From assembly GCA_963764625.1 (NCBI GenBank), contig CAVXTH010000009.1, forward strand, positions 480,001 to 544,000: a stretch of 64,000 bases of DNA. The letters run 5' to 3'. Position numbers and translations under genes: made by a program. The notes under the pieces were generated by a model that did not search any database, was not told where the DNA came from, and was given only the letters and a program-made list of their open reading frames with translations. Origin of the DNA: Candidatus Krumholzibacteriota bacterium (lineage in GTDB: Bacteria > Krumholzibacteriota > Krumholzibacteriia > JAJRXK01). Shown here one piece after another: positions 2,019-33,180 of the stretch (its first letter is position 1; each line of letters starts with the position of its first letter).

Positions 2019-2265
2019 ACGGATAGTGGATTGTATACGGCGCTTTAGCCGAAAAGCGAGCAACGACCTTCGAAACGGGTGCTCTTTGCGCTGTGTTCTC
2101 GGTGCGATGATCACCATGAGGATTGATCGTCGATCCGCGACTCACCCTACCGCAACTCTGTTCGCCCGACATGCGCCCACCTGAGCGGCTTCCACCTATC
2201 CTTGGGCACACCGTACCCCCGACGCTCGTGCTGTTGCGCATTCGTCGGGAGGCTGAGGGTACTGG
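2019..2265 (-). repeat. IS91/ISCR-like oriIS end, copy 1 (247 bp)
   Basis: Matches 17334 onward, starts ACGGATAGTGGATTGTATACGG, diverges after GAGGGTACTGG. Confidence 0.9.
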
Positions 2266-2483
2266 CTGACCAAGTCGGGCAGGCAGCGAAAGATCGGCAA
2301 GATCGTCAGCGGTGGAGGTTGTGCTCTGGTGGTTCTTGCGGTGAGCGTGGCGGTGCTGACTCTTCTGAGCTGGGTGAGTCTGTAGGCAACCGCGGCGGAG
2401 TTGAAGCGATTCGGATTTCGTCGCATAATGGAATGGTCGCGGCATATTGATTGATCTGCACATTTGCAAGGTTGGTAAAGCTC

Positions 2484-3059
2484 ATGAGATGTGGAATTGC
2501 CTGCGGGCTGTTACTCTCGTTGCTCCTTTTCCTCGCTCCGAGCACGAACGCACAGGATGTCCCGGGAAATGTCTTCTTGGGAGTGCCCTCAATTCTCACT
2601 CACTACGTGCTCGTGTGTCTTCCTCCCGAGGGGGGCGTCTACGCGCTCGCCACTGAACCGCTGGAGCCGGTGAAGTCGGTGCGCTTCCAGGTCACCTGGC
2701 CGGACGGAGTCGATCACGATCAGGGGAGCGTGATCTGGCCGGGCGCGGTCGATGTCTCCGAACCCGGTGACGACATCTGGGACATCGTGTTCGAGGAATG
2801 TCGCGACAAACCGGGCAGCACTCTGTACCTCGTGAACTACGGAGGGGTGGATTATTACGGTCAAAGGGGCTGGATGTGCCCGTATGGTGACGTGGTTCCC
2901 CGACCGGTGTGGACGCTGTGTTCCGGGGAAACCATCGAAGCCTCGCTCTTCGACATGGGCCCTTCCTGGGTGGATGGCTGTTCTCCTTTTGGAAACAACT
3001 TCTGCGAGGTCATCCCCGCCCAGGCGCAGAGCTGGGGCACCCTGAAGTCCAGCTACTGA
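2484..3059 (+). CDS. Secreted hypothetical protein with C-terminal SWGTLKSSY motif
   Basis: Signal peptide ending STNA-Q, ends AQAQSWGTLKSSY, duplicated with a frameshift near 20991. Confidence 0.7.
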   Translation: MRCGIACGLLLSLLLFLAPSTNAQDVPGNVFLGVPSILTHYVLVCLPPEGGVYALATEPLEPVKSVRFQVTWPDGVDHDQGSVIWPGAVDVSEPGDDIWDIVFEECRDKPGSTLYLVNYGGVDYYGQRGWMCPYGDVVPRPVWTLCSGETIEASLFDMGPSWVDGCSPFGNNFCEVIPAQAQSWGTLKSSY

Positions 3060-3079
3060 GAATGAAGTGGAGAGGATCG

Positions 3080-3418
3080 ATGGATCGCAAGAAGGCCGTT
3101 CGAGACTATTAGGAGTCCGCGCGCCCGGCGGGAGTCTACCGCGTGCAGCACACGCCGAGCGGCCGCACTCTTTTGGGATCCAGTCCCGATGCGCCGGCGA
3201 TGCTCAACCGCATTCGCTTTCAGTTGCAGACGAAGGGGCATCCCAATCGCAAGCTTCAGGCCGACTGGAATGCCGATGGCGCGGATGCCTTCACCTTCGA
3301 AGTCTTGGATCTGCTGCCGCCCACCGAGAACGAAGTGAAGGACCCGGCCGCAGAGTTGGCCGCTCTCGAGGAATTGTGGCAAGACAAACTGCAGATCGCG
3401 GAAGAGCTGCGCTACTAG
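3080..3418 (+). pseudogene. Small GIY-YIG-like protein with an in-frame TAG at 3110-3112
   Basis: MDRKKAVRDY*ESARPAGVYRVQH...; the second copy at 21586 has AAG at this codon. Confidence 0.65.
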
Positions 3419-3510
3419 TCTCGCCATGAACATTGACTGGCACGAAGAGGCCAGCTTCAGATAGGATTTCATTTCTAAACCACCGGCCACGTATTCCCAC
3501 GAGGGCAAGC

Positions 3511-4239
3511 ATGTCTGAAAGTTCCGTTGCTCGTTGGCCCCAGCACTACGCGCGTCTCTGTGGCTTCTTTTATCTGTACATCATCGTGGCCGGCATCTTC
3601 GCCGAACTCTTCGTTCGCGCGAAGCTCGTCATTCCGACCGACGCCGGCGCGACAGCCCACAACATCCTGAGCCACGAATCGCTGTTCCGGATTGGGTTTT
3701 CCGGCGAGATCCTGCATCTCTCCTTCGACGTCATGGTGGCAGTGATTCTGTACGCGTTGCTTCGCCCTGTCGATCGCAGCATTGCCCTCCTCGCCGCGTT
3801 CATGCGCTTTGCCTGTGATCTCATCTTGGCCGTGGCGAGCATGAGCCACTTCGCGGCATTGAAGCTCTTGCATGGAGGCGCTGCTCTCGAGTCCTTTTCC
3901 TCGGGACAACTGCATTCGCTCGCACTGTGGGTGATGAATCTTCACGGCGACGCCTATGCCATCAGTCTCGTCTTCTTCGGCTTCGCATGTCTCGCCCTGG
4001 GGCACCTTCTCTTTTACTCAGACTTTCTCCCCAAGGCCCTCGGTGTTCTGCTCGCTCTCGCCGGAGTCTGCTACCTCTTCACGAGCTTCGCCCAGTTCCT
4101 GGATCCGGCCTTCGCCCAGCGACTCTTTCCCGTCTTCTTCATTCCGTGCTTTGTGGGCGAGCTCGGCTTCGCGCTGTGGATGCTCGTGAAGGGCGTGAAA
4201 GTTGAAAAGTGGAGAGAGCGGGCGCTCGCGCAGGACTAA
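3511..4239 (+). CDS. DUF4386-like multi-pass membrane protein
   Basis: YARLCGFFYLYIIVAGIFAELFVR...ATAHNILSHESLFRIG...GELGFALWMLVKGV pattern typical of DUF4386. Confidence 0.8.
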   Translation: MSESSVARWPQHYARLCGFFYLYIIVAGIFAELFVRAKLVIPTDAGATAHNILSHESLFRIGFSGEILHLSFDVMVAVILYALLRPVDRSIALLAAFMRFACDLILAVASMSHFAALKLLHGGAALESFSSGQLHSLALWVMNLHGDAYAISLVFFGFACLALGHLLFYSDFLPKALGVLLALAGVCYLFTSFAQFLDPAFAQRLFPVFFIPCFVGELGFALWMLVKGVKVEKWRERALAQD

Positions 4240-4392
4240 ACCCCTAACGGGGCGGTTGGCGACAGACCCGTTGTCCGTCCAGGCTATCAACTCTTGACCG
4301 CCCGGGCAGAAGTGGTCCACGCTCAGCTCATCCGTCCCCTCCCCCTACAGGTCTTAGTTTACGCTTCGTGTGCTGCTCAGGAGGCATTGCCG

Positions 4393-4976
4393 TGACCAAA
4401 TTTCGTTGGGTGTTGTTGCTCGCTTTGATTCTCATGGGACTTTGGGCTCGTGAAGCTTCGGCTCAAGGACGACCCGATCCCGCAAAACTCATGGCGGCTC
4501 AGCGAGAGGCGATGAGCCGACTTGCCATCATGGATGGGGTGTGGAGGGGTGCCGCTTCGATCAGCATGGGTCCGGACGGGAAGCACGAAATCACCCAGAC
4601 AGAACGGGTTGGATCGTTCTTGGATGGTTCCGTGAAAGTCGTCGAGGGCCGCGGCTACGAGGCAGACGGCACGGTCAGTTTCAATGCGCTGGGCATCATC
4701 TCCTACGACCCTGAGTCCAAGAGTTACACGATGCATTCCTATGCGCAGGGGAATGTCGGTGACTTCGTATTGACTCCTACGGGCGATGGCTACAGCTGGG
4801 AGATCCCCGCTGGACCCATGAAGATAAAATACACGGCCACCATCAAGGATGGAACTTGGATCGAAACCGGAGACCGCGTATTGCCGGGCAAGGAGCCGGT
4901 GCGGTTCTTGGAGATGAAGCTCGAACGTGTCGGAGATACCGACTGGCCGTCCGCAAACGCAGTGAAGCCCCAGTGA
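4393..4976 (+). CDS. Secreted DUF1579-like protein
   Basis: Signal peptide, AQREAMSRLAIMDGVWRG...TQTERVGSFLDGSVKVVEGRGY. Confidence 0.7.
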
Positions 4977-5103
4977 GCGAGTGCGCCCTGCATGCTTCCG
5001 CGGAAGTGGCCGCGGGCCGGGGTCTTGTTCATATTCTGGTACGTAGAATTCCCGCCAGCGCGGGAAACGCAACAGATAACTCGGCCCCGAAAGGAGCTTC
5101 AGT

Positions 5104-5235
5104 ATGAAGCTGAGAAGCAAATTGTGGAGCGCTGCGCTTCTTCTCGTCGCAGTACTCTGGTCGATCGCCGCTTTCGCCAAGAACACTGACCAGAAGATCG
5201 TCGTCAAGGACGTCGGCTTTTCCACTCCCGAGTCG
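5104..5235 (+). pseudogene. 5' fragment of a secreted beta-propeller/SMP-30-like protein cut by repeat copy 2
   Basis: MKLRSKLWSAALLLVAVLWSIAAFAKNTDQKIVVKDVGFSTPES runs straight into the repeat. Confidence 0.6.
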
Positions 5236-5670
5236 ACGGATAGTGGATTGTATACGGCGCTTTAGCCGAAAAGCGAGCAACGACCTTCGAAACGGGTGCT
5301 CTTTGCGCTGTGTTCTCGGTGCGATGATCACCATGAGGATTGACCGTCGATCCGTGCCAGGTGTCTGAGAATCCGGTCCACCACCGCTGCTTCGTCGATC
5401 ACCGACACGATCTTCATGGTTCCCCCGCACTGCGGGCAGAGCATGGGGTCCAGCTCGAAGATCCTGCGCAGCAGGCGTGCCCAGCTGCGGCTGCGCGCAG
5501 TGGACGGTGCCCTGGCGATCGTCGCGTCCTGGGGGGTGGCTCTTGCCCCTCGGGCCCGGTGCGAGTACCAGCCGTAGTAACGGACCAGGTGCTGCCGTGG
5601 CGCGGGGATCTAGGCGCACAGACGGCGGATCATCTCCAGAACATCGAGTTCGAGATCACGTTGGCCGGTG
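5236..5670 (-). repeat. IS91/ISCR-like end, copy 2 (ori plus 3' piece of transposase, internal deletion)
   Basis: Same start motif, deletion at CGATCCG microhomology (5348-5354), identity to the full copy ends at TTGGCCGGTG. Confidence 0.9.
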
Positions 5671-5840
5671 AGGCGCTTGGTCAACTGTTTGAGGATGCCA
5701 TCGTTGCCGAGAAACTCCTCGGGCTTCTTGCCGGCGATGAGCTCATCGAGCAACTTGTCGGTAGGATCTGGCTTGGCCATGGCTCTTCTCCTTTGATAGA
5801 GTATAGTTCAAGGCCAGTTACACAGAAAAGCTTACAGTCT
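5671..5840 (-). mobile_element. IS256-family left end and transposase N-terminal fragment
   Basis: Minus strand from ATG 5780: MAKPDPTDKLLDELIAGKKPEEFLGNDGILKQLTKRLT; terminal AGACTGTAAGCTTTTCTGTGTAAC resembles IS256 IRs. Confidence 0.7.
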
Positions 5841-5872
5841 TGATAATGGAAGCTCAAACACGAGGATTGAAA

Positions 5873-6982
5873 ATGAAGCGAAATCACCTCTATTTCATTA
5901 TCACGCTGTTGCTTGTCGCGATGGCGGTCGTCGGCTGCTCTGACAACGGCACCGCCCCGGTGCTCGACAAGGGCCCGGCTATCACACGCGTTTGGATCGA
6001 GGGCGCGCTCAACGTATCCCTCGGTGGCACCACGGCCATGAAGGCCATGGTCATGTACGAGGACGGCACAACCCACGATGTCACCGAAGACGCCGCCTGG
6101 GACACGCTCGACCCCACCGTGGCTACCGCGGACAACGGCGTCGTGACAGCGGTCGACATCGGTGTCACCCAGGTGCGCATCCGCTACCGCGGCGTCACCT
6201 TCTCCGACTTTCTCGGTGTTCCGACGCGTGGGTATCCTCAGGGCTCCATCTCACTCGAGGGATACAGCGGGGTCGACCAGGCACTCCAGCTCAACCCCGG
6301 CGAGACCCGTCAGCTCAAGATCGAGATTCGATACCCCGACGCCACCACGCTCGACATCACCGACCGCGCGGTCTTCGACTCGTCCAACCCCGCCGCCATT
6401 TCCGTCGATCCATTCGGAGTGGCCACCGTCCACGTCGACCAGGGCGCGACCGAGCTCTGGATCGAGTACCGTGGCCAGTACGCGCAGTTCACACTGCAGG
6501 TGGGTGACCCCCTGCCCAAGCAGTACGAAGTCTATGTGGAAGCCGAAAGATTCGCGGCGCCCAATTCGTGCGACAGCGCCACCAACGCTGATGGCGGCGA
6601 CGGCGAATTCTGTTACCAGATCAACGTCGTTACGCCGACCGGCGACCGCCTGCTCGTCGCCGAGACCACCGACTATCCCAGCAAGGACCACGTCATCCAC
6701 GTTGACCAGAACGGATCGCTGACCCTCAACTCCGCGCAGCTCGGCCCGCTCCCACTCAGCGAAATCCAGGCCCTCGAGGTCGAAGTGCGCGTGACCGAGT
6801 GGGACCTGCAGTGGACCGACTTCGGCGACCCCATACACGATTCCGATATGGACGACAGGTCGGACAGCCGCGTCTATCGCGGCTCCGACGGCTTTTCGCC
6901 CGGCGTCCACACCATCAACCTCACCGGATCCGCCGACTGCGAAGTCGAGGTCAGCTTCCGCATCATCGCCGTCCAGCTGTAG
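5873..6982 (+). CDS. Lipoprotein with Big_2-type Ig-like domains
   Basis: Lipobox VVGC, two repeats of DGTTHDVT..A.W....P.VATA / DATTLDITDRAVFDSSNPAAISVD. Confidence 0.75.
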   Translation: MKRNHLYFIITLLLVAMAVVGCSDNGTAPVLDKGPAITRVWIEGALNVSLGGTTAMKAMVMYEDGTTHDVTEDAAWDTLDPTVATADNGVVTAVDIGVTQVRIRYRGVTFSDFLGVPTRGYPQGSISLEGYSGVDQALQLNPGETRQLKIEIRYPDATTLDITDRAVFDSSNPAAISVDPFGVATVHVDQGATELWIEYRGQYAQFTLQVGDPLPKQYEVYVEAERFAAPNSCDSATNADGGDGEFCYQINVVTPTGDRLLVAETTDYPSKDHVIHVDQNGSLTLNSAQLGPLPLSEIQALEVEVRVTEWDLQWTDFGDPIHDSDMDDRSDSRVYRGSDGFSPGVHTINLTGSADCEVEVSFRIIAVQL

Positions 6983-7020
6983 CCCCCACCCGGAAGGGCG
7001 CAGGAACGCAAGGGCCCCGT

Positions 7021-7119
7021 ACGGATAGTGGATTGTATACGGCGCTTTAGCCGACAAGCGAGCAACGACCTTCGAAACGGGTGCTCTTTGCGCTGTGTTC
7101 TCGGTGCGATGATCACCAT
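7021..7119 (-). repeat. IS91/ISCR-like oriIS end, copy 3 (99 bp, shortest)
   Basis: ACGGATAGTGG...GATGATCACCAT then unrelated sequence. Confidence 0.9.
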
Positions 7120-7194: not shown

Positions 7195-8037
7195 CTGTCC
7201 CTGCCCCGAGTTCAATAAGCAAGTGCAACACTTCTGGCTTAGCGACTTCCGCGCTAGAATGCGCGGATTATGTCTAAACACTACAAGCACTTGTCCGAAG
7301 AGGAGCGGGATCGTCTGGCGATCCTCAAGGGCCAGGACCTGCCGATGAGAGCGATCGCGGCTCAACTCGGTCGGTCTCCCTCGACGATCTCACGGGAGCT
7401 GCGTCGTAACGCCTCCTCCGGCAGATCAAGCGGCTATCTGCCCCATAAAGCCCAAACCGAAGCCGACCTTCGTTGGAGGCAAAGTCATCGTCGGCTGCGT
7501 CTGAAAGCCCCCTTCCTGAGGTCATATGTCCGAATCGGTCTCAAACGAGGCTGGTCACCCGAGCAGATCGCCGGACGACTTCGATACGAAGGTCACTCGC
7601 TGACCGTCAGTCACGAAGCCATCTATCAATGGATCTACCTCGAGGCTAGGGAGCTGATCCCTCGGCTCGCCAAGTCTCACCGCAAACGACTACCGCGCCG
7701 GTATTGCAAACACTCCCGATTCCGTATCCCCAACAGGGTTTTCATCTCCGAACGCCCCCAGCATGTGCTTACACGGGAATAGCCAGGACACTGGGAGGTC
7801 GACACCGCCAACTCACCTCGCGGGACGGCGGCGCTCGCTGTTGCTGTCGAACGCAAGACTCGGTACATGAGGATCAAGGCCATCTCTCGAAAAACGGCTA
7901 TGGCGTTCCGCAAGTCGCTGGTTGAAAGTCTCGGCAGCTATCCCGACCACATCCGAGCGACAATCACTTACGATAACGGTGCAGAGAACACATGCCATTG
8001 CTGGGTCGATCGCGCCCTGGGCACTCAGGCGTACTAC
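7195..8037 (+). mobile_element. IS30-family element, defective (nonsense codon 7780-7782, 3' truncated); ORF starts 7270
   Basis: YKHLSEEER...RSPSTISRELRRN, WSPEQIAGRL, GHWEVD, TITYDNGAEN; similarity stops after TQAYY, before the expected third catalytic Glu. Confidence 0.85.
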
Positions 8038-8264
8038 GACGGCCCCATTCGTGACTCTCAGCAAAACAGAGACGCCGTGCTGCGCAAGTATTCGAAACGT
8101 GCCCGAATGTGGCAAACGAAAGGCCCACCTGCGGTGAGCGATACGGCCTGCGTTAAGAAAACGAGGCCACCTGATTAGGCGGCCTCGATAAGTGGCTCCC
8201 CTTTCGTGACTCGCAGCGAAAGGGTCTATGTTCGGGGGTTGACTAGGTCCGTAATCTCTGTGGC

Positions 8265-9416
8265 TCACTGGCCGCCGCGGAAGAGAGCCTTTAGTCCTCC
8301 GAAGCTTGTGGCCTCTGTGGGCACGGGAGCTCCTGCGAAGGGTTCGAAATCCGCGATTCCTGTCTCCAGAGCGGAGTCGTGATTGTCATAGATGCGCGCA
8401 GCGATCTCCGTAGGATCGGTTGTCCCCCAGTAGTTGTTCGTGAAGTCATAATGCCTGATCTCAGGCGCGGTATCTCCCGTCAAATAAGCCAGATATCCTT
8501 GTGAAGAAATTAAGTCGTTCTCGTTGACATGCACAGTGCTAGGCGAACCAATCCATATTCCGTATAACTGTGAATTCAGCAGCTCATTCTGATGAAGGTC
8601 TACCGTAGCGTAGTTGCTGATATCAACATGCCATCCATTGTTCTGAAGCGTGTTGTCAGCAACCGTCACCACGGTCCCGCTTTCTAACAATACGATCCCA
8701 GAGTACATGACATTTTCGATTGTGCAGTTCTCGATGAACCCCGGACAATTGTCAAATTGGATTCCTACACTACCTCCATTGATATGCGTGTAGCTGATCT
8801 GAGCTTCTTGCGGTGATCCTAGCGTAATTCCATATCCGACATTATCTGTCAACTCGCAATGGCTGATGCGAATCAGTCCCCCTGTAAATGGCACATGAAT
8901 GCCGTCCTCGTTGTTATGCATGATGCTATGATCAATCGTAAGGGGACCTTCCGGCTCAAAGCCAAATTTGCAGTATCGTGCCACACAATCCGCTATGTAG
9001 AAATCCCCTAGGGAGTACGCGCCCACCCAAGTGTTCTCAAATGTCATCTTTTCGATGTGAGTTACGCTGACGTTTTGGGCGACGACCAATCCCACGGGAT
9101 CTCCCTGGGCAGTGGTGGGTGCGGTAGGACCGATGATCACGGCATCTCGATCCGTCCCTATTATCGTCAGATTGTCTACCCGAACTACTAGATGCGCGTC
9201 GCGTCGTACGCCGCTGTTGAAATAGAACTCCGTGACTTCTTCATATCTTCCAGGTCCGATCAACAGAGTATCCCCCGCTGCTGCAGCGTCGGCTGCTGGC
9301 TGCAGCAGGGTATAATCTCCCGTGCCATTTTTCATCACGGTGATGGTATTGGACCAAGCCGCCGTCGAGAGGAGAAGTAGAGCCAAACTGAATGTGGCAA
9401 GGATGGAGTTGCGCAT
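8265..9416 (-). CDS. Secreted beta-helix (NosD-like) protein with C-terminal TSFGGLKALFR motif
   Basis: Signal peptide, GTGDY..LQPAADAAAAGDTLLIGPGRY, parallel beta-helix repeats, NNYWGT, visibly AT-richer than the core. Confidence 0.75.
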   Translation of the reverse strand: MRNSILATFSLALLLLSTAAWSNTITVMKNGTGDYTLLQPAADAAAAGDTLLIGPGRYEEVTEFYFNSGVRRDAHLVVRVDNLTIIGTDRDAVIIGPTAPTTAQGDPVGLVVAQNVSVTHIEKMTFENTWVGAYSLGDFYIADCVARYCKFGFEPEGPLTIDHSIMHNNEDGIHVPFTGGLIRISHCELTDNVGYGITLGSPQEAQISYTHINGGSVGIQFDNCPGFIENCTIENVMYSGIVLLESGTVVTVADNTLQNNGWHVDISNYATVDLHQNELLNSQLYGIWIGSPSTVHVNENDLISSQGYLAYLTGDTAPEIRHYDFTNNYWGTTDPTEIAARIYDNHDSALETGIADFEPFAGAPVPTEATSFGGLKALFRGGQ

Positions 9417-9475
9417 GCTGTTGCCTTCTCGAACTGCGGGTTGGGGCTATGGACCCCAACCCACTACTCCTACAG

Positions 9476-10072: not shown

Positions 10073-10074
10073 CG

Positions 10075-11100
10075 ATGCGATTCAGTCAGCCGGAAAGGAT
10101 GGAGATCATCCGCCTGGTCGAGGAGTCGGAGCTGGGAGTGAAGCAAACGCTGCAGGAGCTGGATGTTCCTCGGAGTACCTTCTACCGCTGGTATCGGCGC
10201 TACGAGGAGGCAGGCTACGAGGGCCTGGCCTTGAGGCAATCAGCGCGGCAATTCTGGAATCGGATTCCCGATCCTGAGAGGCAGCAGGTTGTGGAAACAG
10301 CGCTGGAGAAGCCCGAGATGAGCCCCCGGGAGCTGGCCTGGCACATCACGGATACCCAGGGGCTGTACATCTCCGAGTCCAGCGTCTACCGCATCCTGAA
10401 GGACTTCGATCTGGTGACCAGTCCGCACTACATCGTGATGCACGCCGCGGATGAGTTTGCGCGGCCGACGCGGGCGATCCACGAGCTGTGGCAGACGGAT
10501 TTCACCTACTTCCGGATCGTCCACTGGGGCTGGTACTACCTGCTGACGATCCTGGACGATTACAGCCGCTACATCATCGCCTGGAAGCTCTATACGGGGA
10601 TGGGGACTGCGGATGTCACCGATCTCCTCGATGAGGCGATCGAGAAGACAGGCGCGGATCACGTGGCGGTGAAACATCGACCCAGGCTGCTTTCGGACAA
10701 TGGACCTTGCTTCGTCTCTCAGGAGCTGAAGGAGTATCTGCAGGCCCATGAGATGAGGCACACCCGTGGCAAGCCCTACCATCCGATGACGCAGGGGAAG
10801 ATCGAGCGTTACCACCGGACGATGAAGAACGTGGTGAAGCTGAAGAACTACTACGCACCGGGGGAGCTGAGCGAAGAGCTCGAGCGCTTCGTCCACTACT
10901 ACAATCACCAGCGCGTCCACGAGTCGCTGAGCAACCTGACCCCGGCTGATGTGTATCTAGGTCGGGGGCGGGAGATCCAGACGGCCCGACAGCGGCTGAA
11001 GACACAGACGCTACGCCGTCGCAAGCGTTACAACAAAGGCCTCAATCCACGGAAGGAGGAGCTGATTCTACCGTCGATCTATCGCGAAAGTGTCCTTTAG
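10075..11100 (+). CDS. IS3 OrfB DDE transposase
   Basis: WQTDFTY...LDDYSRYI...SDNGPCF...QGKIERYHRTMK; -1 frame relative to OrfA. Confidence 0.9.
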   Translation: MRFSQPERMEIIRLVEESELGVKQTLQELDVPRSTFYRWYRRYEEAGYEGLALRQSARQFWNRIPDPERQQVVETALEKPEMSPRELAWHITDTQGLYISESSVYRILKDFDLVTSPHYIVMHAADEFARPTRAIHELWQTDFTYFRIVHWGWYYLLTILDDYSRYIIAWKLYTGMGTADVTDLLDEAIEKTGADHVAVKHRPRLLSDNGPCFVSQELKEYLQAHEMRHTRGKPYHPMTQGKIERYHRTMKNVVKLKNYYAPGELSEELERFVHYYNHQRVHESLSNLTPADVYLGRGREIQTARQRLKTQTLRRRKRYNKGLNPRKEELILPSIYRESVL

Positions 11101-11139: not shown

Positions 11140-11398
11140 GGGCTTTATGGGGCAGATAGCCGCTTGATCTGCCGGAGGAGGCGTTACGACGCAGCTCCCG
11201 TGAGATCGTCGAGGGAGACCGACCGAGTTGAGCCGCGATCGCTCTCATCGGCAGGTCCTGGCCCTTGAGGATCGCCAGACGATCCCGCTCCTCTTCGGAC
11301 AAGTGCTTGTAGTGTTTAGACATAATCCGCGCATTCTAGCGCGGAAGTCGCTAAGCCAGAAGTGTTGCACTTGCTTATTGAACTCGGGGTAGGGACAG
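11140..11398 (-). mobile_element. Second IS30 left-end fragment, inverted, truncated by IS3
   Basis: Reverse complement of 7195-7453, same MSKHYKHLSEEERD start at 11323. Confidence 0.9.
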
Positions 11399-15502: not shown

Positions 15503-15511
15503 GCATTCTTT

Positions 15512-16152: not shown

Positions 16153-16254
16153 GAAATCCTCCTCGTTGGAACTCCAGGACCAATCACCGATCCTGGCTAC
16201 GAAAAGGATGTAGCAAATCATGAGCAGTATGGGAATACTCCCCAGAGTGACCGG

Positions 16255-17331: not shown

Positions 17332-17333
17332 CT

Positions 17334-23892: not shown

Positions 23893-24041
23893 TGGCCGAC
23901 GGGACCTTCGAGGCGGGGCACTACGTCCGCAGCTGGGATGGACGCGACAAGAGCGGAAGGGTCGTGCCCTCGGGCGTGTACCTCGCGCGCTTGAAAGCAG
24001 GCGACCGGGTGGAGACGCAGAAGATGGCTTTGCTCAAGTAG
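23893..24041 (+). pseudogene. Orphan FlgD-Ig C-terminal fragment
   Basis: LADGTFEAGHYVRSWDGRDKSGRVVPSGVYLARLKAGDRVETQKMALLK*. Confidence 0.75.
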
Positions 24042-24096
24042 TGAAAATGCGGCTTTAATCAGGCTGATGGCGGACTGACTGGTCCAGTCTCGCCAG

Positions 24097-24126
24097 GGCC
24101 CCGGGCGGAAGTCCGGGGCCTTTTCT
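24097..24126 (+). terminator. Rho-independent terminator
   Basis: GGCCCCGGGC-GGAA-GTCCGGGGCC followed by TTTTCT. Confidence 0.7.
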
Positions 24127-24268
24127 CGCGATTGCGAACCCAACAGAATTGAAAGCGACTTTCAGTTGCGAGGAAGATCGAAGTGCCGGCGGGCGAGGGT
24201 GGAGGTGTATACTGCATCCAGATTCCATCTGGGCTCCCTGTCATGAGTGAACACAGGAGGGTCCCGGT

Positions 24269-27049
24269 ATGTCCACTGCCTGGCGTGTCGGGAGCTGGTG
24301 TCATCGGCTCCGGCCGCTTCTACTCTACCTCCTCATTCCCCTTCTCATCCTCGGACCTCACGCCTCGAGTTCGCACGCGGCGAGTCCGGATTCCCTGGCC
24401 ACGCAGCCGGACACGGCAAACAGCAGCCACCTCCTGCGTGCCCGACTCGACAATGGGCTCCGGGTGGTAATCGTTCCAAAGCCGCAGGAAGTGCTCGTCC
24501 GAGCTCTCCTCCTCTACGATGCCGGTGCCTGTCGCGAGCCGGAGGGCAAGGGGGGACTCGCCCACCTCGTCGAGCACCTCATGTTCGCGAGCAGTGCCCC
24601 AAGACCCGACGAAAGCTTGCGTCAGCGACTGAGACTGCACGCGATCGACGATCGTGGCTGGACCAGCTCCTTTGCCATGGGCTACCAATGGGATTGTCTA
24701 CCAGAAGAGCTTCCCGTTTTGCTCGAGATCGAAGCCGAGCGGATGGCCGGTCTCGCGTTGAGTGAAGCGACCTTCGAACGGGAACGAAACGTCGTGTTGC
24801 GGGAGAAAGATTTCCGTGGCGAGAGAGACGCCTGGGAGGAATTGATCTCGAACTGCTACCGCGCCGCCTACAAGGGGCATCCGCTCGGACGCGATGTCTC
24901 CGGAACCGTCGAGTCCGTCTCGCAGCTCAGTCTGCAGGACGTGCGCGAGTTCCACGAGGAATACCTCCGGCCCGGTCGCGCGATCCTGGTGATCGAAGGG
25001 CCGGCGTCGCCCCAGATCGTCGTACGGCAAGTCCGCAAGAGCTTCGAGCCAGTACAGAAGCCCGGCTCGGGAACCGAGGCCACACTGCCTTCGCTTCCAA
25101 AGCTCGCGCACCACAGTGTGATCAGTGATCGACCCGATTTTCAGGGCTTCCAGGTTGCTTACGGATTGCGGACTCCAACCCGAACCCCGCACGACCTGGT
25201 CATGAACGCCATCCTGTGCGAATTGTTGGACTCCTGGGTGGGTGCGCTCAGTTCCTACTCCATGGGCAAAGAGAGGCTGCTCGTGGTCCATCGCTGGTAT
25301 TCTCGGTACTTCGCGGGCCCGGAGTTTGTCACCATGGAGGTCAACGCGGACTACGATGCCCAGGAGGCTCTGTCCTGGCTCTGGAACGACATCGTGAGGA
25401 GTGGCCGTCATCTGCGAAACAGGATCAGGTTTCCTGCCATCATCGAAGGGGCACGCCGACGACTTTCTCAGCACGGTTTGCGCTCCGGTTCGGATCTCAC
25501 GGATCTCGCCATGAACGAGCTGGCGGTCGGTCCCACCGCGTCGTTGAGCGTTTTGGACTCGATTCTATCGAAAGTCGACGAGGAAGATTGCCTGGAGTAC
25601 TTCCATCGCGCGATCAACAACGAGTGCAGCGTCAACACAGTCGTCCATGGCAAGGGATCCAAACGCAAGCTCGAGCTCAATACGGTGGGAATGGCCAGCG
25701 CGACCGCGCAGGACAGTACTGGCTACAAGCCGGCACCGAGTCCCGATCCGGAACGGCTCGAGGAACTCCTGCAACTCTACGAGCGCTGCGGTCTACCCAG
25801 GATGGAACGAGTCTCTCTGCCCGATCAGGGCAGCTTGTACTTGTGGGAGCAACCCGAGAGCCAGGAAATGCGTGTGGCGGGTCTGCGGTGTTTCCGCGGC
25901 CTTCGAGACCTCGAAGCCTCGGGTAAGCCGGGAATGAACGCGCTCTACAACGTCACGGCGTCCTATGCATCCAGGCGGGATGACCCGGATGAGGAACCGG
26001 AAATCTATCACCTTCCCTACGGAACCAGATTCCTTGCTGATGCCTTCGAGTACAACTTCTCGGCCCATGGCCGAAGCGAGGACCTGGACGGGATACTCTC
26101 CACTTTGTCAGAGCGGTTGAACAAGAAGGGGCTCGATGCCGCTGCGTGGGGAAGAACCTTGAGGCATGTCGATCTCTGGTTCGCGAAAGACTATGTGGAT
26201 GCGCAATTGCTCGCTCAACGGTATCGGCGCTCACTCGTCTTCGGTCCAGAGCATCCTTCTCGCTATTCCGAGATTTGCCCCCCCGAGACCTATGACAAGA
26301 TCAAATACAAAGACATCAGCAAATTCCACCAGAACCTCGCATCCCGGGATGGACTCCTGTGGTTCGCGAGCGGAAGAGTTGATTCGGCCCGGCTGGTTCG
26401 CGCTCTGCCGAAGCTGATCAAACGGGACAAGAAGCCGAAACTGATGGAAACCATCCCGGGCGCTCCTCCGCTGAAGCGGATCAGCGGTCGCATCTTTCCC
26501 GCATTCGAGTGCTCGGACGCAAGAGTCGTGCTGTCGTTGCCTGCGATCGACGTGTCCGCGGTGCCGAATGCCTGGGCCCACTGGGAGATTCTGCGGGCCA
26601 TGTTGCACCAGCAGCTCTTCCAAGAACTCCGCGAAAGGGAGAGCCTCGTCTACGTAGTCCAAGCGGACGAGGATCTCCAGGGAGACCGGTTCTCTCTCAC
26701 GATCAGCGCCAGCACGTCTCCCGAACGAGCGGAACGGGTATTCTCGATCCTGTGCGAGTTTCTGAAGAGAGTTCGATCACGCGCGGTCGAGGAGTCTCCC
26801 TTCCTGCTCGCCAAACTCGATGCAATCCACCATCTGCTGCGAGCAGAGGAAGATCCTGCTCTCGCTCTCGCCCGAATGGAGTGGATGGCGCGGTTCGGTC
26901 CCATACCAGAGAATCCCACTGAGGAACTCATCGATCTGGACCTGGCCTCCTTTCAGAGCTTCCTAAAACAGACCGTAAACCCGGACGCCTTCGTCTTCAC
27001 CGTCGTGGGCCCGATCCTGGAGGATGAGATCGAGAGTTTTACCTTCTGA
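24269..27049 (+). CDS. M16 (insulinase-like) zinc peptidase, large single chain
   Basis: LDNGLRVV, GLAHLVEHLMF (HxxEH), FERERNVVLRE, LFQELRERESLVY. Confidence 0.8.
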   Translation: MSTAWRVGSWCHRLRPLLLYLLIPLLILGPHASSSHAASPDSLATQPDTANSSHLLRARLDNGLRVVIVPKPQEVLVRALLLYDAGACREPEGKGGLAHLVEHLMFASSAPRPDESLRQRLRLHAIDDRGWTSSFAMGYQWDCLPEELPVLLEIEAERMAGLALSEATFERERNVVLREKDFRGERDAWEELISNCYRAAYKGHPLGRDVSGTVESVSQLSLQDVREFHEEYLRPGRAILVIEGPASPQIVVRQVRKSFEPVQKPGSGTEATLPSLPKLAHHSVISDRPDFQGFQVAYGLRTPTRTPHDLVMNAILCELLDSWVGALSSYSMGKERLLVVHRWYSRYFAGPEFVTMEVNADYDAQEALSWLWNDIVRSGRHLRNRIRFPAIIEGARRRLSQHGLRSGSDLTDLAMNELAVGPTASLSVLDSILSKVDEEDCLEYFHRAINNECSVNTVVHGKGSKRKLELNTVGMASATAQDSTGYKPAPSPDPERLEELLQLYERCGLPRMERVSLPDQGSLYLWEQPESQEMRVAGLRCFRGLRDLEASGKPGMNALYNVTASYASRRDDPDEEPEIYHLPYGTRFLADAFEYNFSAHGRSEDLDGILSTLSERLNKKGLDAAAWGRTLRHVDLWFAKDYVDAQLLAQRYRRSLVFGPEHPSRYSEICPPETYDKIKYKDISKFHQNLASRDGLLWFASGRVDSARLVRALPKLIKRDKKPKLMETIPGAPPLKRISGRIFPAFECSDARVVLSLPAIDVSAVPNAWAHWEILRAMLHQQLFQELRERESLVYVVQADEDLQGDRFSLTISASTSPERAERVFSILCEFLKRVRSRAVEESPFLLAKLDAIHHLLRAEEDPALALARMEWMARFGPIPENPTEELIDLDLASFQSFLKQTVNPDAFVFTVVGPILEDEIESFTF

Positions 27050-27103
27050 CTACCGCCTAGTCGCGGCGAACGTCATGGCTCTTCGATCAGGTCGAAACAA
27101 ACA

Positions 27104-27129
27104 AGCGCCCGGTGTCACCACCGGGCGCT
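27104..27129. terminator. Hairpin between convergent genes
   Basis: AGCGCCCGGTG-TCAC-CACCGGGCGCT, T-rich tail on the minus strand. Confidence 0.6.
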
Positions 27130-27156
27130 GTTGTCAGGTAGAGTATAGGACGGAGC

Positions 27157-27416
27157 TCAGCTCTTCTCCTTCATCTTCTCTTCCTTCTTCATCATCTTAG
27201 CCATCTCGGCCTTGTTCTTCTCGGCCCAGGCATGAAGCTCGGCGACGACCTTCGGATTGTCGGAGGTAATGACCGCGATATCGCCGTTCTTGGTTTGAAC
27301 GTCTTCGTAGTGGGCGCCCTTCATCATACAGTTGGTGAGCGCGGTACAGCTTCCGCACAGGGTCACGGCTTCACCGGCCTGAATCTTCTTTTGGCAAGCC
27401 GCCATATCCATATGGT
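27157..27416 (-). pseudogene. 3' fragment of a CxxC protein cut by copy 7
   Basis: ..MAACQKKIQAGEAVTLCGSCTAL...ITSDNPKVVAELHAWAEK; abuts the repeat with no upstream region. Confidence 0.55.
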
Positions 27417-28152
27417 CGGATAGTGGATTGTATACGGCGCTTTGGACGCCGAGCGAGCAACGACCTTCGAAACGGGTGCTCTTTGCGCTGTGTTCTCGGT
27501 GCGATGATCACCATGAGGATTGATCGTCGATCCGCGACTCACCCTACCGCAACTCTGTTCGCCCGACATGCGCCCACCTGAGCGGCTTCCACCTATCCTC
27601 GTGCGGGTCGTTGCCGCCGATCCGTGCCAGGTGTCTGAGAATCCGGTCCACCACCGCTGCTTCGTCGATCACCGACACGATCTTCATGGTTCCCCCGCAC
27701 TGCGGGCAGAGCATGGGGTCCACCTCGAAGATCCTGCGCAGCAGGCGTGCCCAGCTGCGGCTGCGCGCAGTGGAGGGTGCCCTGTCGATCATCGCGTCCT
27801 GGGGGTTGGCTCTTGCCCCTCGGGCCCGGTGCGAGTACCAGCCGTAGTATCTGACCAAATGCTGGCGCGGTGCGGGGATCTGGGCGCACAGACGGCGGAT
27901 CCTGCATGGATAGGGGAGGCCAGAGAGCATGGCAACACAACCCTTGTCGAGGTGGCACGGGCTCTTCAGGTGCATGTGATTTCGCGTAGACTTGGGCCGG
28001 CGATCAAGTTTGTTGAACTCGCGCCGTTACTCGTCCGTCGGAAGCCTGGGCGGCATCGTATAGTCGCGCCGTCGCCCCCTTGAAAAACTTCATCGAAGCC
28101 CATTGCACACTCATCTGTTTGTACTATATTGCATCTACGCACCGCCACCTTT
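27417..28152 (-). mobile_element. Non-autonomous mini IS91/ISCR element, copy 7 (736 bp)
   Basis: Ori end plus transposase 3' piece plus upstream region; two internal deletions shared with copy 8. Confidence 0.9.
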
Positions 28153-28271
28153 TCTTTGTCTGATCGTGCGGCGTTGCCAATGGGTGAATGGGAATGTGAT
28201 CCTTGAACTGCACATGCTGCGTGGGTTAAGCTCGATTTCGTTCCCCATCTCCCTCATTTCCGAGGACATTC

Positions 28272-28956
28272 ATGAACCGACTCAAGCCCGTATTGCGTGC
28301 CGTTGCATGTTTGGCCGCCCTTGCAGCATTCGGATCCTGCTCGGACAGCAAGAGCCCCACTGCCGGAAGCGGTACCTGCGGTGACGAAAGCGTACACTGC
28401 GTTTACGCGATCATTCATACCGCCGACTGGAGCACTGGTGTGGACTACCTCGGATCTAGACTGGACCAGACCGACTACTACGGTACCACCGATCTGCCGC
28501 TCGCGAACATCGAGGGCGTGTCTCCGGGAGACCAGATCTACGTCGGAATCACTCTGTCGCCCGCCCTGGTCGTCAGCAGCAACATACCTCCTGAGGTAGT
28601 CTTGCAGGTGGCCGGGGCACTCCTGGGTGGAAGCACGGATCTCGTGGTACAGACTGAACCGTCTATCTCGATGCGGGGTGACTGGCAGACCATACAGTAT
28701 CCGAGGGTCAATCTTCGCGGCAAGAGCGACGACAGGCAACTGTGACAGCATGAACGCAGAGTGGAGAGCGACGGGGTTGTCGGCGGGTGACGAGCTGCGC
28801 GGCTTTTCCCTCAGCTTCACGGTTCCCGAAACCTGGTCGAACGGTACGTCGATACGGGCAAGCCAGACCATTCCGGTCGAACGAATCGACTGGATCGCGT
28901 CACTCTCGGGTGATACCAGCGGGGAGGTCCCTCCCATCCAGTTGAAGGAGCGATGA
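28272..28956 (+). CDS. Putative lipoprotein, probably frameshifted near 28720
   Basis: MNRLKPVLRAVACLAALAAFGSC lipobox; ORF 28272-28745 appears to continue in the 28627-28956 frame. Confidence 0.5.
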
Positions 28957-31900
28957 TCAAAGAGGCGGTTGCCTGGCTCCATGACCTAACGCAGCAGAGG
29001 TGATCCGGCGGGTCTGTACCGTGCCGGGAATTTGCAGCCTTGCGAAGTAGGTGCCCGAAGCGAGCGCGGCTCCGCTGTCATCTCGTCCCGTCCAGCTGGC
29101 GCTGTGCGTTCCAGAAGTCTCCTCCTCGTCAACGAGTGTTGCGACCCGCCGGCCTCGCACGTCGAACACCTCGAGGCTCACGCGTCCTGCGCGTGGCAGC
29201 CGGTAGTTCAGAAGGGTTCGCCCGCCAAAGGGATTCGGGCTCGGGGGCGCGAACCAAAACTGCGTCGCCGCAATGGGCGTGGCCGCGGTGCCGAGAAGCG
29301 CTGTCCGCAGGTCTGTCTCGGTCAACGAGTTGTACGGAAGCCCGATCCAGGGACTGAATTCGAAATAGGGACTGCGCGAGCGAAAGCGCAGCCGCCAGTG
29401 ATACGCGGTCTCCGAAGTGGCACCGGTGACGGGCTGCTCGAGAGCGACCGCGCTCCCTGCCGAAGTGGGTGCACCCGTGTCGGTGTAGGGACCCCTCTGG
29501 AGCACCCCATCGAACGGGACTCCGACCGGCTTCACCTCGTATTCCATTTGGACTCTGGTACGTCCCGCCGGGCATCGGCCCAGCGCCTTTAGGGCCCAGG
29601 CGGTTTGGACGTTGGACGCGCCGAGCAAATCGATCGGGGCCGAACCGTCGTACTGCGCCTGGCGCGGTATCTTGGGGAGACCGTTGCCGTCGTTGCCAGG
29701 GTGCAGGTAGATCTGATCGAAGCCCCACTTGGTCACCAGCAAATCGGTAAAACCGTCTCCGTTCACGTCGCCGGCGGTGGCAACGACTTGGCCCATCGAA
29801 GCATCAGCCTGATTCGATTCGAAGAACCACTCGTCGCCGATCGGAGGAAAGCTCGACGGTGCGCCGAAGAATACCGTCACCTTCCCCTCGAATTGCTGGC
29901 CATGACTGTACCGCGGCGAGCCGACCACGATATCAGAATACCCGTCTCCATTCAGGTCGCCTGCGTAGCCAACCGAGAGCCCCAGATTCTCACCCAAAGT
30001 CCCCAGGCGACTCCAAGCCTCGTTTTCGTCGATCCCCGTTGGACCACCCAGGTGCACTTGCACGATTCCGTCGAGCGATTGACCCCCGAGCACGATGTCC
30101 GAGTATCCGTCACCGTTCAAATCGCCGGCACTATCCACCGCCACGAGATTGGTGCTGGGAGTGCTCAACCAACAATAGGCCTGGGGGATGAGTTGAAGCC
30201 CAGAGGGAGATCCGAGGTACACCATCGCCACTCCGCGGTTGTCGCCGAAACCGGAGAGCGTCCGAAAATTCCCGACGAGCACGTCAGAATACCCGTCGGC
30301 GTTGACATCTCCGGCGCTCGCCACCGTGTTTCCCACGCCCTCTCGCGTGACGGACCACGAGGGCGATGTCTCCAAACCGGTGGCGGACCCACGGAACAAA
30401 TATGCCGTGGAACTGCCAACCCCATCCGCTCCCACCAAGACGTCTCCGTAACCGTCTCCATCGACGTCGCCAGCATCCGAAACGGCAGATCCGAACAAGC
30501 TGTTCTGCGCGTCTCCCACTTTGGACCACGAGGACGTAATGGAGAGTCCACTCGGACCTCCGTCGAACTCGAAGACCTTCCCTTCACCACCTTGGCTGGC
30601 GTTGAAATCGGGGTCGCCCACCAGTACGTCGGTGTACCCGTCGCCGTTGACATCCCCAGCGAGCGAGACCGAAGCTCCATACGACTGAGGTGCCGCTCTG
30701 CGAGCTCGACCAGGAGGGACTCGTCGACAGCCCGTACGCAGTTCCCAGATACAGGCGGGCGCGCCCATGCCCGGACATGAAGTTGCTGTAGTTGGGGGCG
30801 CCGACGATGACGTCCGAATAGCCGTCGCCGTTCACGTCTCCCGCCGTCGAAGCCGCGTGTCCGTTGTCGGTATCGGCGGCTCCGTCCGAAGCGATCCAAC
30901 CGGGCGCCTCCGAGGGATATCGTTGTCCACCCGTAAAGACCCACGCTGTGCCGAGGTTGGAGTAGTTGGGACTCGTGAGATCGCGGTAGGGTTCTCCTAC
31001 GATGATCTCGGAGAAGCCATCCCCATTGACGTCTCCCGCGGTGCACACGGCGCTGCCGAATTGCGTATCGAAAGAGCCAGAAGTTCGTGTACAGGGGGAC
31101 GTCGAGGGTCCAGCGGAACTCCCGAAATACACGGAAATGTGTCCCTGGTATCCCGGTGCGCCCGGGCTGCCGACGATGATCTCGGCGTAGCCGTCGCCGT
31201 CAAGGTCACCTGCGGTGGACACTGCGATACCGTAACGCTGCCCGGTGACCACCCCGACCTGAGTCCAGACCGGCGTGGTGGCCAGACCAGTGGGACCTCC
31301 CAGATACACGTCGGCCCTGCCCACCACGTCGACTAAATTCGGTGTGTACTTGGGAGCACCCACGATCACGTCGGCGTAGCCGTCGCCATTGACGTCACCT
31401 GCAGTGCAAACCGAGGTGCCGAGTTGTGAACCCAAGCCCCCCGTGACGGACCAATTCTCCGTGCCTCCGATCCCAGAAGGGGATCCGTAATAGGCGAAGA
31501 CCTTGCCGTTGTCGTTGGCAGTGTTCCCGAACGCGTCGTAGCCCGGTGCTCCCACGAGGATGTCGTCATAGCCGTCGCCGTTGACATCGCCCGCAGTCGC
31601 TACCCAGCTGCCAAAATGTGCGCTTTCGGTCCAACCAAAGAGGACTGCATCGTAGGAAGTCGAAGGTCCACTGGGAGAGCCATAGTAGACATAGACTGCG
31701 CCAGACTCGGCCCCCAATAGACCGCCCCCGACACCACGGGCACCCACGACGACATCGGCATACCCATCGCCGTTGACGTCGCCAGCCGTGCATACCGAGC
31801 TGCCGAACAGGGCGCCGGCCAGGTTGATTTCGGCCGTCCAGTCGGGGCTGCCCGAGATCGGGTTGGGCGCGGTAGAGCCGAACCAGATGTAAGCGCGCCC

Positions 31901-32365
31901 TTCCCCAGATTCGCCGTTGGTGTATTGCCAGGCGCCGACGATGACGTCGTCGTAACCGTCGCCGTTGACATCGCCGGCCGCCGAAACCGAGTTTCCAAGA
32001 TTTTCGAAGTATTGGTCCCCAACGACACTACCACCGGTAGACCACAAGCCAGTGACCGAACCCAGCAAAACTTCGAAGTACCCCTCGTCGTAGAGTGGCC
32101 CACCGAAGTCGGCATCCGGAGCTGCCATGATGATGTCGCTGAATCCGTCACCATTGACATCACCGGCGGTCGCGACCGCTTTGCCAAAGTGTGCGTCGTT
32201 TTGGGTGAGACCGTAGTATGGACCGCTGTAATTCGGCAGGCAAGCAAGCTGGGCCAAAGCGGAGGAGTGCACGCAGACCGAGGTGATGGCAAGTGCAATG
32301 AGAATCAGAGGAACTCGCGAGCGGCTACCGGAGGTTGGGACCACGGACGCCAGGGTCGCACTCAT
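28957..32365 (-). pseudogene. FG-GAP (integrin-alpha) repeat protein with FlgD-Ig tail, frameshifted near 30690
   Basis: Many AGDVNGDGY.D..VGAP repeats over two frames, signal peptide after ATG 32365, PNPF...VFDVRGRRVATLVD tail. Confidence 0.85.
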
Positions 32366-32443
32366 GAGAGTACTCCCTTCGGGGGGGAGGGAAGGATCGT
32401 TGAATTGATCGTACGCGAATTCGACAGCCCACTTCCACCCGAA

Positions 32444-33180
32444 ACGGATAGTGGATTGTATACGGCGCTTTGGACGCAGAGCGAGCAACGACCTTCGAAA
32501 CGGGTGCTCTTTGCGCTGTGTTCTCGGTGCGATGATCACCATGAGGATTGATCGTCGATCCGCGACTCACCCTACCGCAACTCTGTTCGCCCGACATGCG
32601 CCCACCTGAGCGGCTTCCACCTATCCTCGTGCGGGTCGTTGCCGCCGATCCGTGCCAGGTGTCTGAGAATCCGGTCCACCACGGCTGCTTCGTCGATCAC
32701 CGACACGATCTTCATGGTTCCCCCGCACTGCGGGCAGAGCATGGGGTCCACCTCGAAGATCCTGTGCAGCAGGCGTGCCCAGCTGCGGCTGCGCGCAGTG
32801 GACGGTGCCCTGGCGATCGTCGCGTCCTGGGGGTTGGCTCTTGCCCCTCGGGCCCGGTGCGAGTACCAGCCGTAGTATCTGACCAAATGCTGGCGCGGTG
32901 CGGGGATCTGGGCGCACAGACGGCGGATCCTGCATGGATAGGGGAGGCCAGAGAGCATGGCAACACAACCCTTGTCGAGGTGGCACGGGCTCTTCAGGTG
33001 CATGTGATTTCGCGTAGACTTGGGCCGGCGATCAAGTTTGTTGAACTCGCGCCGTTACTCGTCCGTCGGAAGCCTGGGCGGCATCGTATAGTCGCGCCGT
33101 CGCCCCCTTGAAAAACTTCATCGAAGCCCATTGCACACTCATCTGTTTGTACTATATTGCATCTACGCACCGCCACCTTT
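32444..33180 (-). mobile_element. Non-autonomous mini IS91/ISCR element, copy 8; right border of the island
   Basis: Near-identical to copy 7 through GCACCGCCACCTTT. Confidence 0.9.

Follow-up and report, generated by a model that had tools for sequence, protein, structure and literature searches.

Insertion sequences (ISs) of the IS91 family move by rolling-circle transposition, which, in the passages of the sources cited here, begins at oriIS, a site downstream of the tnpA stop codon with a subterminal hairpin, and proceeds back through the gene to terIS (PMC5737581; PMC13181058). In the cited part of the IS801 report, ori-end fragments of 229, 360 and 679 nucleotides (nt) transpose and flanking DNA is carried in vivo, the far ends of the miniature fragments ending in a consensus tetranucleotide (PMC3189936), and a second source gives, in the part cited, 1–14% as the proportion of events in which IS91 and IS1294 miss terIS (PMC13181058). 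Here, a 64,000-nt stretch from a Candidatus Krumholzibacteriota bacterium (contig CAVXTH010000009.1, positions 480,001 to 544,000; the window) was analysed, in which the repeat unit is an insertion sequence of the IS91 family (HUH, two-tyrosine, rolling-circle), present as an array of partial copies that share one exact end, the ori end, and are ragged at the other. The array has grown only to the left of resident oris and on one strand, its units have been re-copied from ori, and it has captured foreign chromosomal DNA; the anatomy of the array, its empty site, one donor, its junctions and a series of ori-tip repeats were all observed directly. The explanation that we favour, with moderate confidence, is that ori is nicked, that its 5' end is joined to unrelated 3' ends, that the far ends are formed without specificity, and that the products integrate beside resident oris.

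Copy 4 (17334–19123, plus strand) is the sole copy with an intact transposase gene, and IS positions are numbered relative to it throughout. Its tnpA gene (17588–18964, minus strand) encodes an IS91-family HUH/Y2 transposase of 458 amino acids, with matches to the Pfam domains Zn_Tnp_IS91 (PF14319, 4e-21) and Y2_Tnp (PF04986, 6e-26) and a score of 196 bits against the NCBIfam model transpos_IS91 (NF033538, cut-off 125), of which positions 4–355 of 356 were covered. The translation contains H-V-H and Y-x-x-x-Y strings, which we take to be the catalytic motifs. This is the only full-length gene for an IS91-type transposase in the 3.57-Mb genome to which the window belongs (G000). The tnpA stop codon lies 254 bp from the exact end, and DNA folding gives a subterminal hairpin at IS 22–40 (17355–17373, plus strand), which takes another form in copies 7 and 8. 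Because the position past the tnpA stop codon and the subterminal hairpin are as in the IS91 family, the exact end was assigned as oriIS. Since this end is the initiation side, with the gene and then terIS behind it, the transferred strand is the plus strand of the window, whose 5' end is the exact end. Copy 4 has no direct repeat common to its flanks, and its ends are not inverted repeats, as is usual for this family, which has neither terminal inverted repeats nor target-site duplications. An exact oriIS boundary with many abutting genes and without a working terIS is shared with ISCR elements (ISCR1, complex class 1 integrons) as these are described in the cited part of the source (PMC6218425). 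Unlike ISCR, the copy 4 transposase did not reach the ISCR model NF052416 (182 bits against a cut-off of 925), the copies themselves are truncated, and the cargo is made up of pieces of relatives' chromosomes instead of resistance genes.

The initial annotation had described eight separate copies between 2019 and 33180 with one common left boundary, and this boundary was confirmed. Seven copies begin exactly with ACGGATAG (at 2019, 5236, 7021, 17334, 20526, 22613 and 32444), and copy 7, at 27416, reads TCGGATAG instead. The first base is identical in all eight copies, and no relation is seen among the 50-nt stretches that precede them. BLAST searches against copy 4 and inspection of the junctions gave retained lengths of 247, 435, 99, 1790, 247, 1280, 737 and 737 bp for copies 1 to 8; these agree with the lengths first annotated, except that copies 7 and 8 are both 737 bp and are not simply truncated, as each has two internal deletions. 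Copies 1 (2019–2265) and 5 (20526–20772) retain IS 1–247, copy 2 (5236–5670) consists of IS 1–118 and 304–630, copy 3 (7021–7119) of IS 1–99, and copy 6 (22613–23892) of IS 1–1280, all on the plus strand; copy 2 is present in undeleted form, IS 1–630, in the sister genome G002. Copies 7 (27416–28152) and 8 (32444–33180), likewise on the plus strand, are 99% identical and consist of IS 1–184, 287–591 and 1573–1790 plus 35 nt. Copy 8 occupies the ancestral site beside an HNH gene, and its orthologous sites on contig C8 of G002 and at the metagenome locus L140 hold full-length or nearly full-length copies; copy 7 takes in 70 nt of the right flank of copy 8. All eight copies are real, but copies 1 and 5 belong to a single duplicated unit (2019–4110 and 20526–22612, 98.9% identical). 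Because the copies are 87–100% identical over 99–1790 nt, and because an independent assembly contains units 2 and 3 at 99.5% identity, chance similarity is excluded.

The span first annotated proved too narrow. Three ori-bearing pieces, all on the plus strand, lie upstream of the window on the same contig, at G000:C9:475989 (IS 1–184 and 287–456), G000:C9:479410 (40 nt) and G000:C9:479450 (IS 1–184 and 287–536), and a relic lies at 35215–35331. In all, G000 contains 12 IS pieces, eight of them inside that span, and every one keeps base 1 and lies on the same strand. No IS copy was found elsewhere in G000 by BLAST, by ori pattern or by tnpA search. A 22-nt ori pattern, allowing up to three mismatches, has 12 forward and no reverse sites in G000 and 13 of 13 sites on one strand in the congener G002, with no matches in the other 206 genomes of the phylum searched; a wide genome search with a 17-nt degenerate ori pattern returned almost exclusively chance matches from unrelated phyla, and the Krumholzibacteriota rows alone were kept. 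Base 1 is kept in 10 of 12 IS pieces in G002 and in 22 of 24 in both genomes together. A repeat of about 1.4 kb on contig C9 of G002 (reverse-complement coordinates around 7948–9421 and 49190–50659) precedes a diverged ori (piece a) and an ori-less piece (i), and probably caused the loss of IS 1–209 at the latter. When the contig is divided into 56 bins of 20 kb, the plus strand has a positive GC skew in 52 of them, and the nicked (plus) strand is probably the lagging-strand template. Other single-strand (HUH) transposases are known to prefer the lagging-strand template; if the enzyme needs single-stranded DNA, this preference would explain the single orientation of the copies.

In two congeners that lack the element, G001 and G004, the chromosomal genes that flank the array are adjacent and convergent, their stop codons being 4 nt apart in G004. 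Window positions −9584 to 35331 (44.9 kb) therefore constitute an island, which the ori relic (35215–35331, plus strand) closes on the right. In this relic a diverged ori begins at 35230 and remains similar over about 75 nt; the relic is also present in G002, and the stop codon of the neighbouring chromosomal gene (35332–36963, minus strand) abuts it. The G002 island sits between the same flanks with an array of its own. The two islands share their left 3.5 kb and, at the right end, a copy with the IS 592–1572 deletion, the HNH gene and the relic; their middles are nearly all different, except for an IS66 element (100%), IS481-like and IS30-like elements, and units 2–3. As the ends are shared and the middles differ, both lineages gained new material exclusively on the left side of the oldest ori. 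The 39 island open reading frames (ORFs) scanned showed no integrase or recombinase domain. The gene between copy 8 and the relic (33157–35193, plus strand) encodes an HNH-endonuclease family protein of 678 amino acids. Two to three diverged copies of it (69–82% nucleotide identity) occur per genome in all genomes of the genus searched, and the copy on contig C3 (G000:C3:6482–8610) is preceded by a 15-nt tandem repeat.

Mis-assembly of a repeat-rich region is a very improbable source of this arrangement. The genome is a metagenome-assembled genome (MAG), in which repeats of 100–1800 bp can be mis-joined, but the 99.5% match of units 2 and 3 is to a second MAG, the flanks are colinear with three other genomes, and the ori-tip repeats described below recur in G002, in L140, which is an independent metagenome contig, and in a contig of run X2.

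Cargo 1 (2265–5235), the DNA between copies 1 and 2, is 97.8% identical over its whole length to contig C20 of the sister species G003, and only 76–83% identical to the orthologous region of G000 itself, on contig C5. The donor stretch continues on both sides in G003:C20, colinear with G000:C5, and G003 has no copy of the IS; cargo 1 is therefore an internal fragment of a sister-species chromosome, and in the available representative of the donor species no IS adjoins it. The fragment is cut mid-gene at ori 2, the break falling after 44 codons of a 303-codon ORF. Microhomology is 1 nt at the joint between IS 247 and cargo 1 and 0 nt at the joint between cargo 1 and ori 2. Unit 5 (20526–22612, plus strand) comprises copy 5 and the first 1.84 kb of cargo 1, and its joint to ori 6 again shows 0 nt of microhomology. 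Since the match to the donor and to C5 continues across position 4110, the longer form is unit 1, of which unit 5 is a shortened copy; the duplication starts exactly at one ori and ends exactly at another. The suggestion that left junctions are enzymatic strand transfers gains from the exact oriIS end, from 21 flanks without a consensus and from the two joints with 0 nt of microhomology, and is tempered by two of the 12 G002 pieces, which lack the ori end. For the right junctions, illegitimate or microhomology joining agrees with the lack of a shared motif in 22 far ends and with the 1 nt found at the one joint to a known donor, although later deletions are possible there.

The other cargos are 67–87% identical to regions of G000 or its relatives, and no donor closer than 87% was found for them among 10–12 relatives, or, for the cargos of G002, among the four genomes searched. 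Pfam gives no IS256 domain at 5671–7020, and the IS256 fragment annotated at 5671 was accordingly dropped; the FlgD tail annotated at 23893, behind copy 6, is weakly supported by a match to positions 43–75 of 79 of the FlgD_ig profile (E 3.5e-5, below the curated cut-off). Genes are also cut exactly at ori 4 and ori 8. At ori 4, an AbiU/AIPR-like gene (16255–17274, minus strand; Pfam AIPR; PADLOC AbiU profile positions 239–422 of 537) lacks its N-terminal part, and its 5' end is 60 bp from the ori. At ori 8, an FG-GAP repeat gene of cargo 7 (30584–32542, minus strand) has homology to a paralogous region on contig C7 of G000 that stops at 32440, directly at the ori.

Such junctions raise the possibility that ori fragments are kept by selection as a gene-capture platform, their outward promoters expressing abutting captured genes in the manner of an integron. 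At several oris a minus-strand gene does start just to the left (the AbiU-like gene at 17274, ORF 4377–5225 and the FG-GAP gene at 32542), and for ISCR1 the cited part of the source describes a variable region beside oriIS that is driven by oriIS-borne promoters (PMC6218425). The genes at the joints are, however, mostly truncated, the orientation of neighbouring genes is mixed, and cargo content differs between the two species; we regard this explanation as improbable.

Seven short repeats of the ori tip, here called stutters, were found, each 6–40 nt long, starting from base 1 and lying directly before another ori. Stutters of 7 and 8 nt stand at the ori relic (window 35215 and 35222, plus strand), one of 40 nt at G000:C9:479410 (plus strand) before the copy at 479450, three of 14, 28 and 37 nt before other oris in G002, and one of 6 nt before another ori in L140. 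None of the seven extends beyond the 3' foot of the ori hairpin. In the 40-nt stutter, the last ten bases match IS 31–40 at six of ten positions, and a variant of this stutter, together with the joint of the G002 piece h, was seen in contigs of run X2. Informative sites are present in two stutters, and both of these carry private variants of the ori on their right. Nested insertion was rejected as their origin because the rest of the split ori, which would be expected downstream, is absent, and random slippage because it would not always begin at base 1. The simplest account is that stutters are direct footprints of an ori 5' end joined to a 3' end that had just copied ori. No report of comparable ori-tip stutters was found in the open-access literature searched, supplements excluded.

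Taken over G000 and G002, 22 distinct far ends were identified, at IS 6, 7, 8, 14, 28, 37, 40, 60, about 75–100, 99, 247, 319, 456, 494, 536, 630, 859, 1063, 1213, 1280, 1790 and 1825, and these share no terminal motif or tetranucleotide. The real terIS is probably at IS 1755, where the sequence reads ...CTTG. Bases from IS 1756 on (which include the final 35 nt of copy 4 and the final 70 nt of copies 7 and 8) match the region upstream of the HNH gene, which also precedes an IS-free paralogue on contig C3; terIS was placed at IS 1755 because homology to this IS-free upstream region begins there and because the independent metagenome copy at L140 breaks at the same point. By the same comparison with C3 and L140, the IS proper within copy 4 would extend over 17334–19088, and 19089–19123 (35 nt, plus strand) would be read-through from the ancestral flank of the HNH gene. 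If terIS is at IS 1755, copies 4 and 7 are read-through products of the HNH-adjacent copy; the 35 and 70 nt of ancestral flank that they carry would correspond to the contiguous donor DNA that one-ended products co-mobilise. The pattern of a 22-nt motif from this upstream region matches G000:C3 and G002:C8 alone, the island copies differing by one indel, and a variant ter region was seen in a contig of run X4. The fold at the candidate terIS is not better than those of shuffled sequences, and no secondary copy in the set ends at it.

The array resembles one-ended transposition of IS91, IS801 and IS1294, as the cited parts of the reports describe it, in transposase family, in having oriIS as the required exact end, in its variable far end and in the carriage of adjacent DNA (PMC3189936; PMC13181058). 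Unlike in those elements, the target tetranucleotide of the family (CTTG, GTTC or GTCC) does not abut oriIS here, as none of 21 distinct left flanks ends in CTTG or GTTC and one ends in GTCC; the far ends follow no consensus and do not resemble terIS or the target tetranucleotide, as those of one-ended products would, and no secondary copy reaches the probable terIS. The copies also differ in being stacked at one site and on one strand, with ori-tip stutters.

Besides truncation, at least seven different internal deletions were found (IS 185–286, 119–303, 592–1572, 568–664, 678–815, 879–965 and 185–717), examples of their joints being at window 27599/27600 and 27901/27902. Copies 7 and 8 carry the deletions of IS 185–286 and 592–1572 and keep the far end of copy 4; the former is common to four copies in G000 and to metagenome contigs. 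Overlaps at the breakpoints, which are upper bounds taken from BLAST pieces, were 3, 10 and 2 nt in G000 and 15, 2 and 1 nt in G002. The array might lack any mechanistic polarity, full-length insertions having been broken by recombination, by other ISs and by random deletions, with ori surviving by chance or selection. The IS66, IS481-like and IS30-like elements of the island, its many internal deletions and its mosaic haplotypes agree with such a history, and the same conclusion was drawn, in the cited part of the IS801 report, for most of 17 IS801 fragments in Pseudomonas syringae, which showed no strong polarity and were mostly attributed to reorganisation (PMC3189936). Here, however, at least 17 independent truncations on the ter side stand against two on the ori side (one-sided binomial approximately 4e-4), no far end in G000 or G002 abuts the end of another IS, all seven stutters start at base 1, the unit 1/5 duplication runs exactly from ori to ori, and the copies lie on one strand in both genomes (12/12 and 13/13). 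Given the excess of ter-side truncations and the stutters, random breakage without polarity is unlikely. Ordinary later deletions, with ori-bearing fragments alone multiplying, could nevertheless have produced the far ends.

Variable sites divide the copies into three haplotypes. The first is recent and cross-species and comprises copy 4, pieces g and h of G002 and the copy on G002:C8; the second comprises copies 1, 2 and 5, with copies 3 and A near; the third comprises copies 7 and 8, and copy 6 is a mosaic of these. Copies 5 and 6 differ at seven sites within IS 92–130. These relationships bear on two models put forward in the initial annotation, nicking at ori with partial resynthesis and a template switch, or homologous integration of circles from one-ended transposition, and on its proposed test, whether each copy derives from its right-hand neighbour; neither model was singled out, and most copies failed the test.

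In the first model taken alone, every unit would be made in place, repair synthesis from the nicked ori copying p bases of the resident element and jumping to foreign DNA in the cell, such as incoming single strands, before the transposase-bound ori 5' end is ligated to the 3' end so formed. Stutters would then be the same reaction minus the template jump, and derivation from the right-hand neighbour does hold for the two informative stutters and for copy 7, whose unit repeats unit 8 at 99% identity up to 70 nt into the flank of the latter, beyond which come foreign DNA and ori 8. Copy 1 equals copy 2 at all sites in IS 1–103 and may derive from it, the donor species G003 is without the IS, and growth is confined to the left of resident oris. 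Derivation from the right fails, on the other hand, for copies A, B, 2, 3 and 4, which are longer than, or of another haplotype than, every ori now to their right. Copy 6 fails against the present copy 7 and would fit copy 8 only if the latter was still undeleted at the time, and copy 5 fails in part; unit 5 copies unit 1, 18.5 kb to the left, and not its right-hand neighbour. We know of no precedent for template jumps of 1.4–10 kb onto foreign DNA. That this reaction made every unit is therefore doubtful.

Homologous integration of one-ended transposition circles would explain no less well why the copies share one locus and one strand and have mosaic haplotypes, but cannot make stutters of 6–40 nt. 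For ISCR, Toleman et al. in 2006 are said to have modelled rolling-circle products that are rescued by homologous recombination and form same-direction arrays. The template-switch model thus accounts for the stutters and not for the haplotypes or unit 5, the circle model for site, strand and mosaics and not for the stutters, and a mixture of local strand transfer and homologous integration of circles is likely.

In the scheme that we favour, which combines nicking at ori with unspecific far ends and integration beside resident oris, the transposase would nick the plus strand exactly before base 1 of oriIS and, by the known chemistry of the family, may stay bound to the ori 5' end. Joining of this end to 3' ends of unrelated sequence would give exact joints of any sequence to ori, without a target motif. 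The far end would not be set by terIS, and could arise by an early stop, by a run of 35 or 70 nt past IS 1755, or by a later ordinary deletion. Only fragments that keep ori could be remobilised, in trans by the copy 4 transposase, and units would thereby multiply and drag along the DNA to their right, as in one-ended transposition. New units would integrate directly before a resident ori, whether through strand transfer where ori is nicked or through homologous recombination between shared ori-proximal sequences. The array would have started with an ori inserted between two convergent genes and extended leftwards from there, always on the same strand and at this one site, trapping foreign DNA, a piece of a sister-species chromosome included. 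Stutters would represent abortive cycles: after the nick, repair synthesis adds a few bases, and the 3' end so made is religated to the bound ori end. In this scheme the chemistry, the succession of steps and the path taken by the foreign DNA are what we infer. As a regular side reaction of the enzyme at the replication fork, the bound ori 5' end could further be joined to whatever nascent 3' end is close by, which would leave the 6–40-nt stutters as footprints and, where the 3' end is that of foreign single-stranded DNA taken up by the cell, would stitch pieces of other species' chromosomes before ori, but we put this forward only tentatively. If true, the island would be a growing, ordered record of captured DNA and a bacterial counterpart of Helitron capture that needs no transposon on the donor side.

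Several observations weigh against the favoured scheme. The haplotypes do not fit a simple history of copying from neighbours, no ori is present at the left edge of the island, and ori-less pieces, absent from the 12 of G000, account for two of the 12 in G002. Enzymatic premature termination is not established, because the far ends lack the consensus tetranucleotide of IS801 fragments, and plain deletions, which are frequent in the copies, could have made all joints between IS and cargo. A close donor is known for one of about nine cargos, junction microhomology rests on three joints, and the scheme does not account for the route by which DNA of other species entered the cell. No simple miniature insertion with contiguous flanks was found in G000, in a metagenome scan with five loci or in the 22-nt pattern search of the phylum. 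Contigs of four runs compared with 19000–33400 were mostly pieces of less than 1.3 kb and bridged no unit junction in a new way; as only short contigs were available, read-level signs of ongoing events were not obtained.

The array can also be set beside Helitron capture, which, in the cited part of the Helraiser report, likewise involves an HUH rolling-circle enzyme, requires the initiating end, creates far ends by truncation and read-through, and captures host fragments (PMC4778049). Helitrons differ in being eukaryotic, with a Rep-helicase fusion, a preferred AT target and no single-site array. The 5'-truncated insertions of long interspersed nuclear elements (LINEs) offer a further analogy, as they are polar copies with one exact end and one ragged end left by interrupted copying; LINEs, however, use reverse transcription and an unrelated enzyme, and their copies are dispersed. 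One-ended transposition, the IS801 miniature fragments (PMC3189936), variable DNA at oriIS (PMC6218425), and Helitron truncation and read-through (PMC4778049) are already known from the cited parts of these sources. The array differs from these in the lack of a target or termination tetranucleotide, the single locus defined by an empty site, the identified foreign chromosomal donor and the ori-tip stutters. The movement of resistance and virulence genes is attributed to IS91 and ISCR elements, but the manner in which DNA arrives beside oriIS has never been shown for ISCR and, among IS91 members, is known for four only, from laboratory work. With its more than 20 independent ori junctions, its empty site, one identified donor and footprints of abortive cycles, the island documents in nature a lineage operating without target or termination specificity, and bears on how rolling-circle elements misfire and capture genes in a wild bacterium.

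Other elements and genes of the island were also noted. The IS66-family element (13883–16258; transposase 13934–15502, minus strand) is 100% identical over 2376 bp to its copy in the G002 island, compared with 85–93% for the island flanks, which suggests that the two species exchanged DNA recently. An inverted repeat of 259 bp (99.6%), at 7195–7453 and 11140–11398, is the start of an IS30-like element (HTH_38 ORF, 7270–7782); between its arms lie a beta-helix gene and an IS481-like transposase gene (10075–11100), and these pieces recur in G002. Two large FG-GAP genes (28957–32542) contain tandem units of about 190 nt, with 11 copies at 30269–32195, and they share 74–76% identity with a pair of paralogues on G000:C7 and with G002:C17. 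A Ser/Thr kinase matching the PD-T4-6 defence family (2.6e-62) is encoded in the cargo that follows the leftmost copy (G000:C9:477700–478689, upstream of the window), so that, with the AbiU-like fragment, the island carries pieces of defence systems. An ORF at 11773–12375 contains a pretoxin HINT domain (PT-HINT, 9e-14) and is probably a fragment of a polymorphic-toxin gene.

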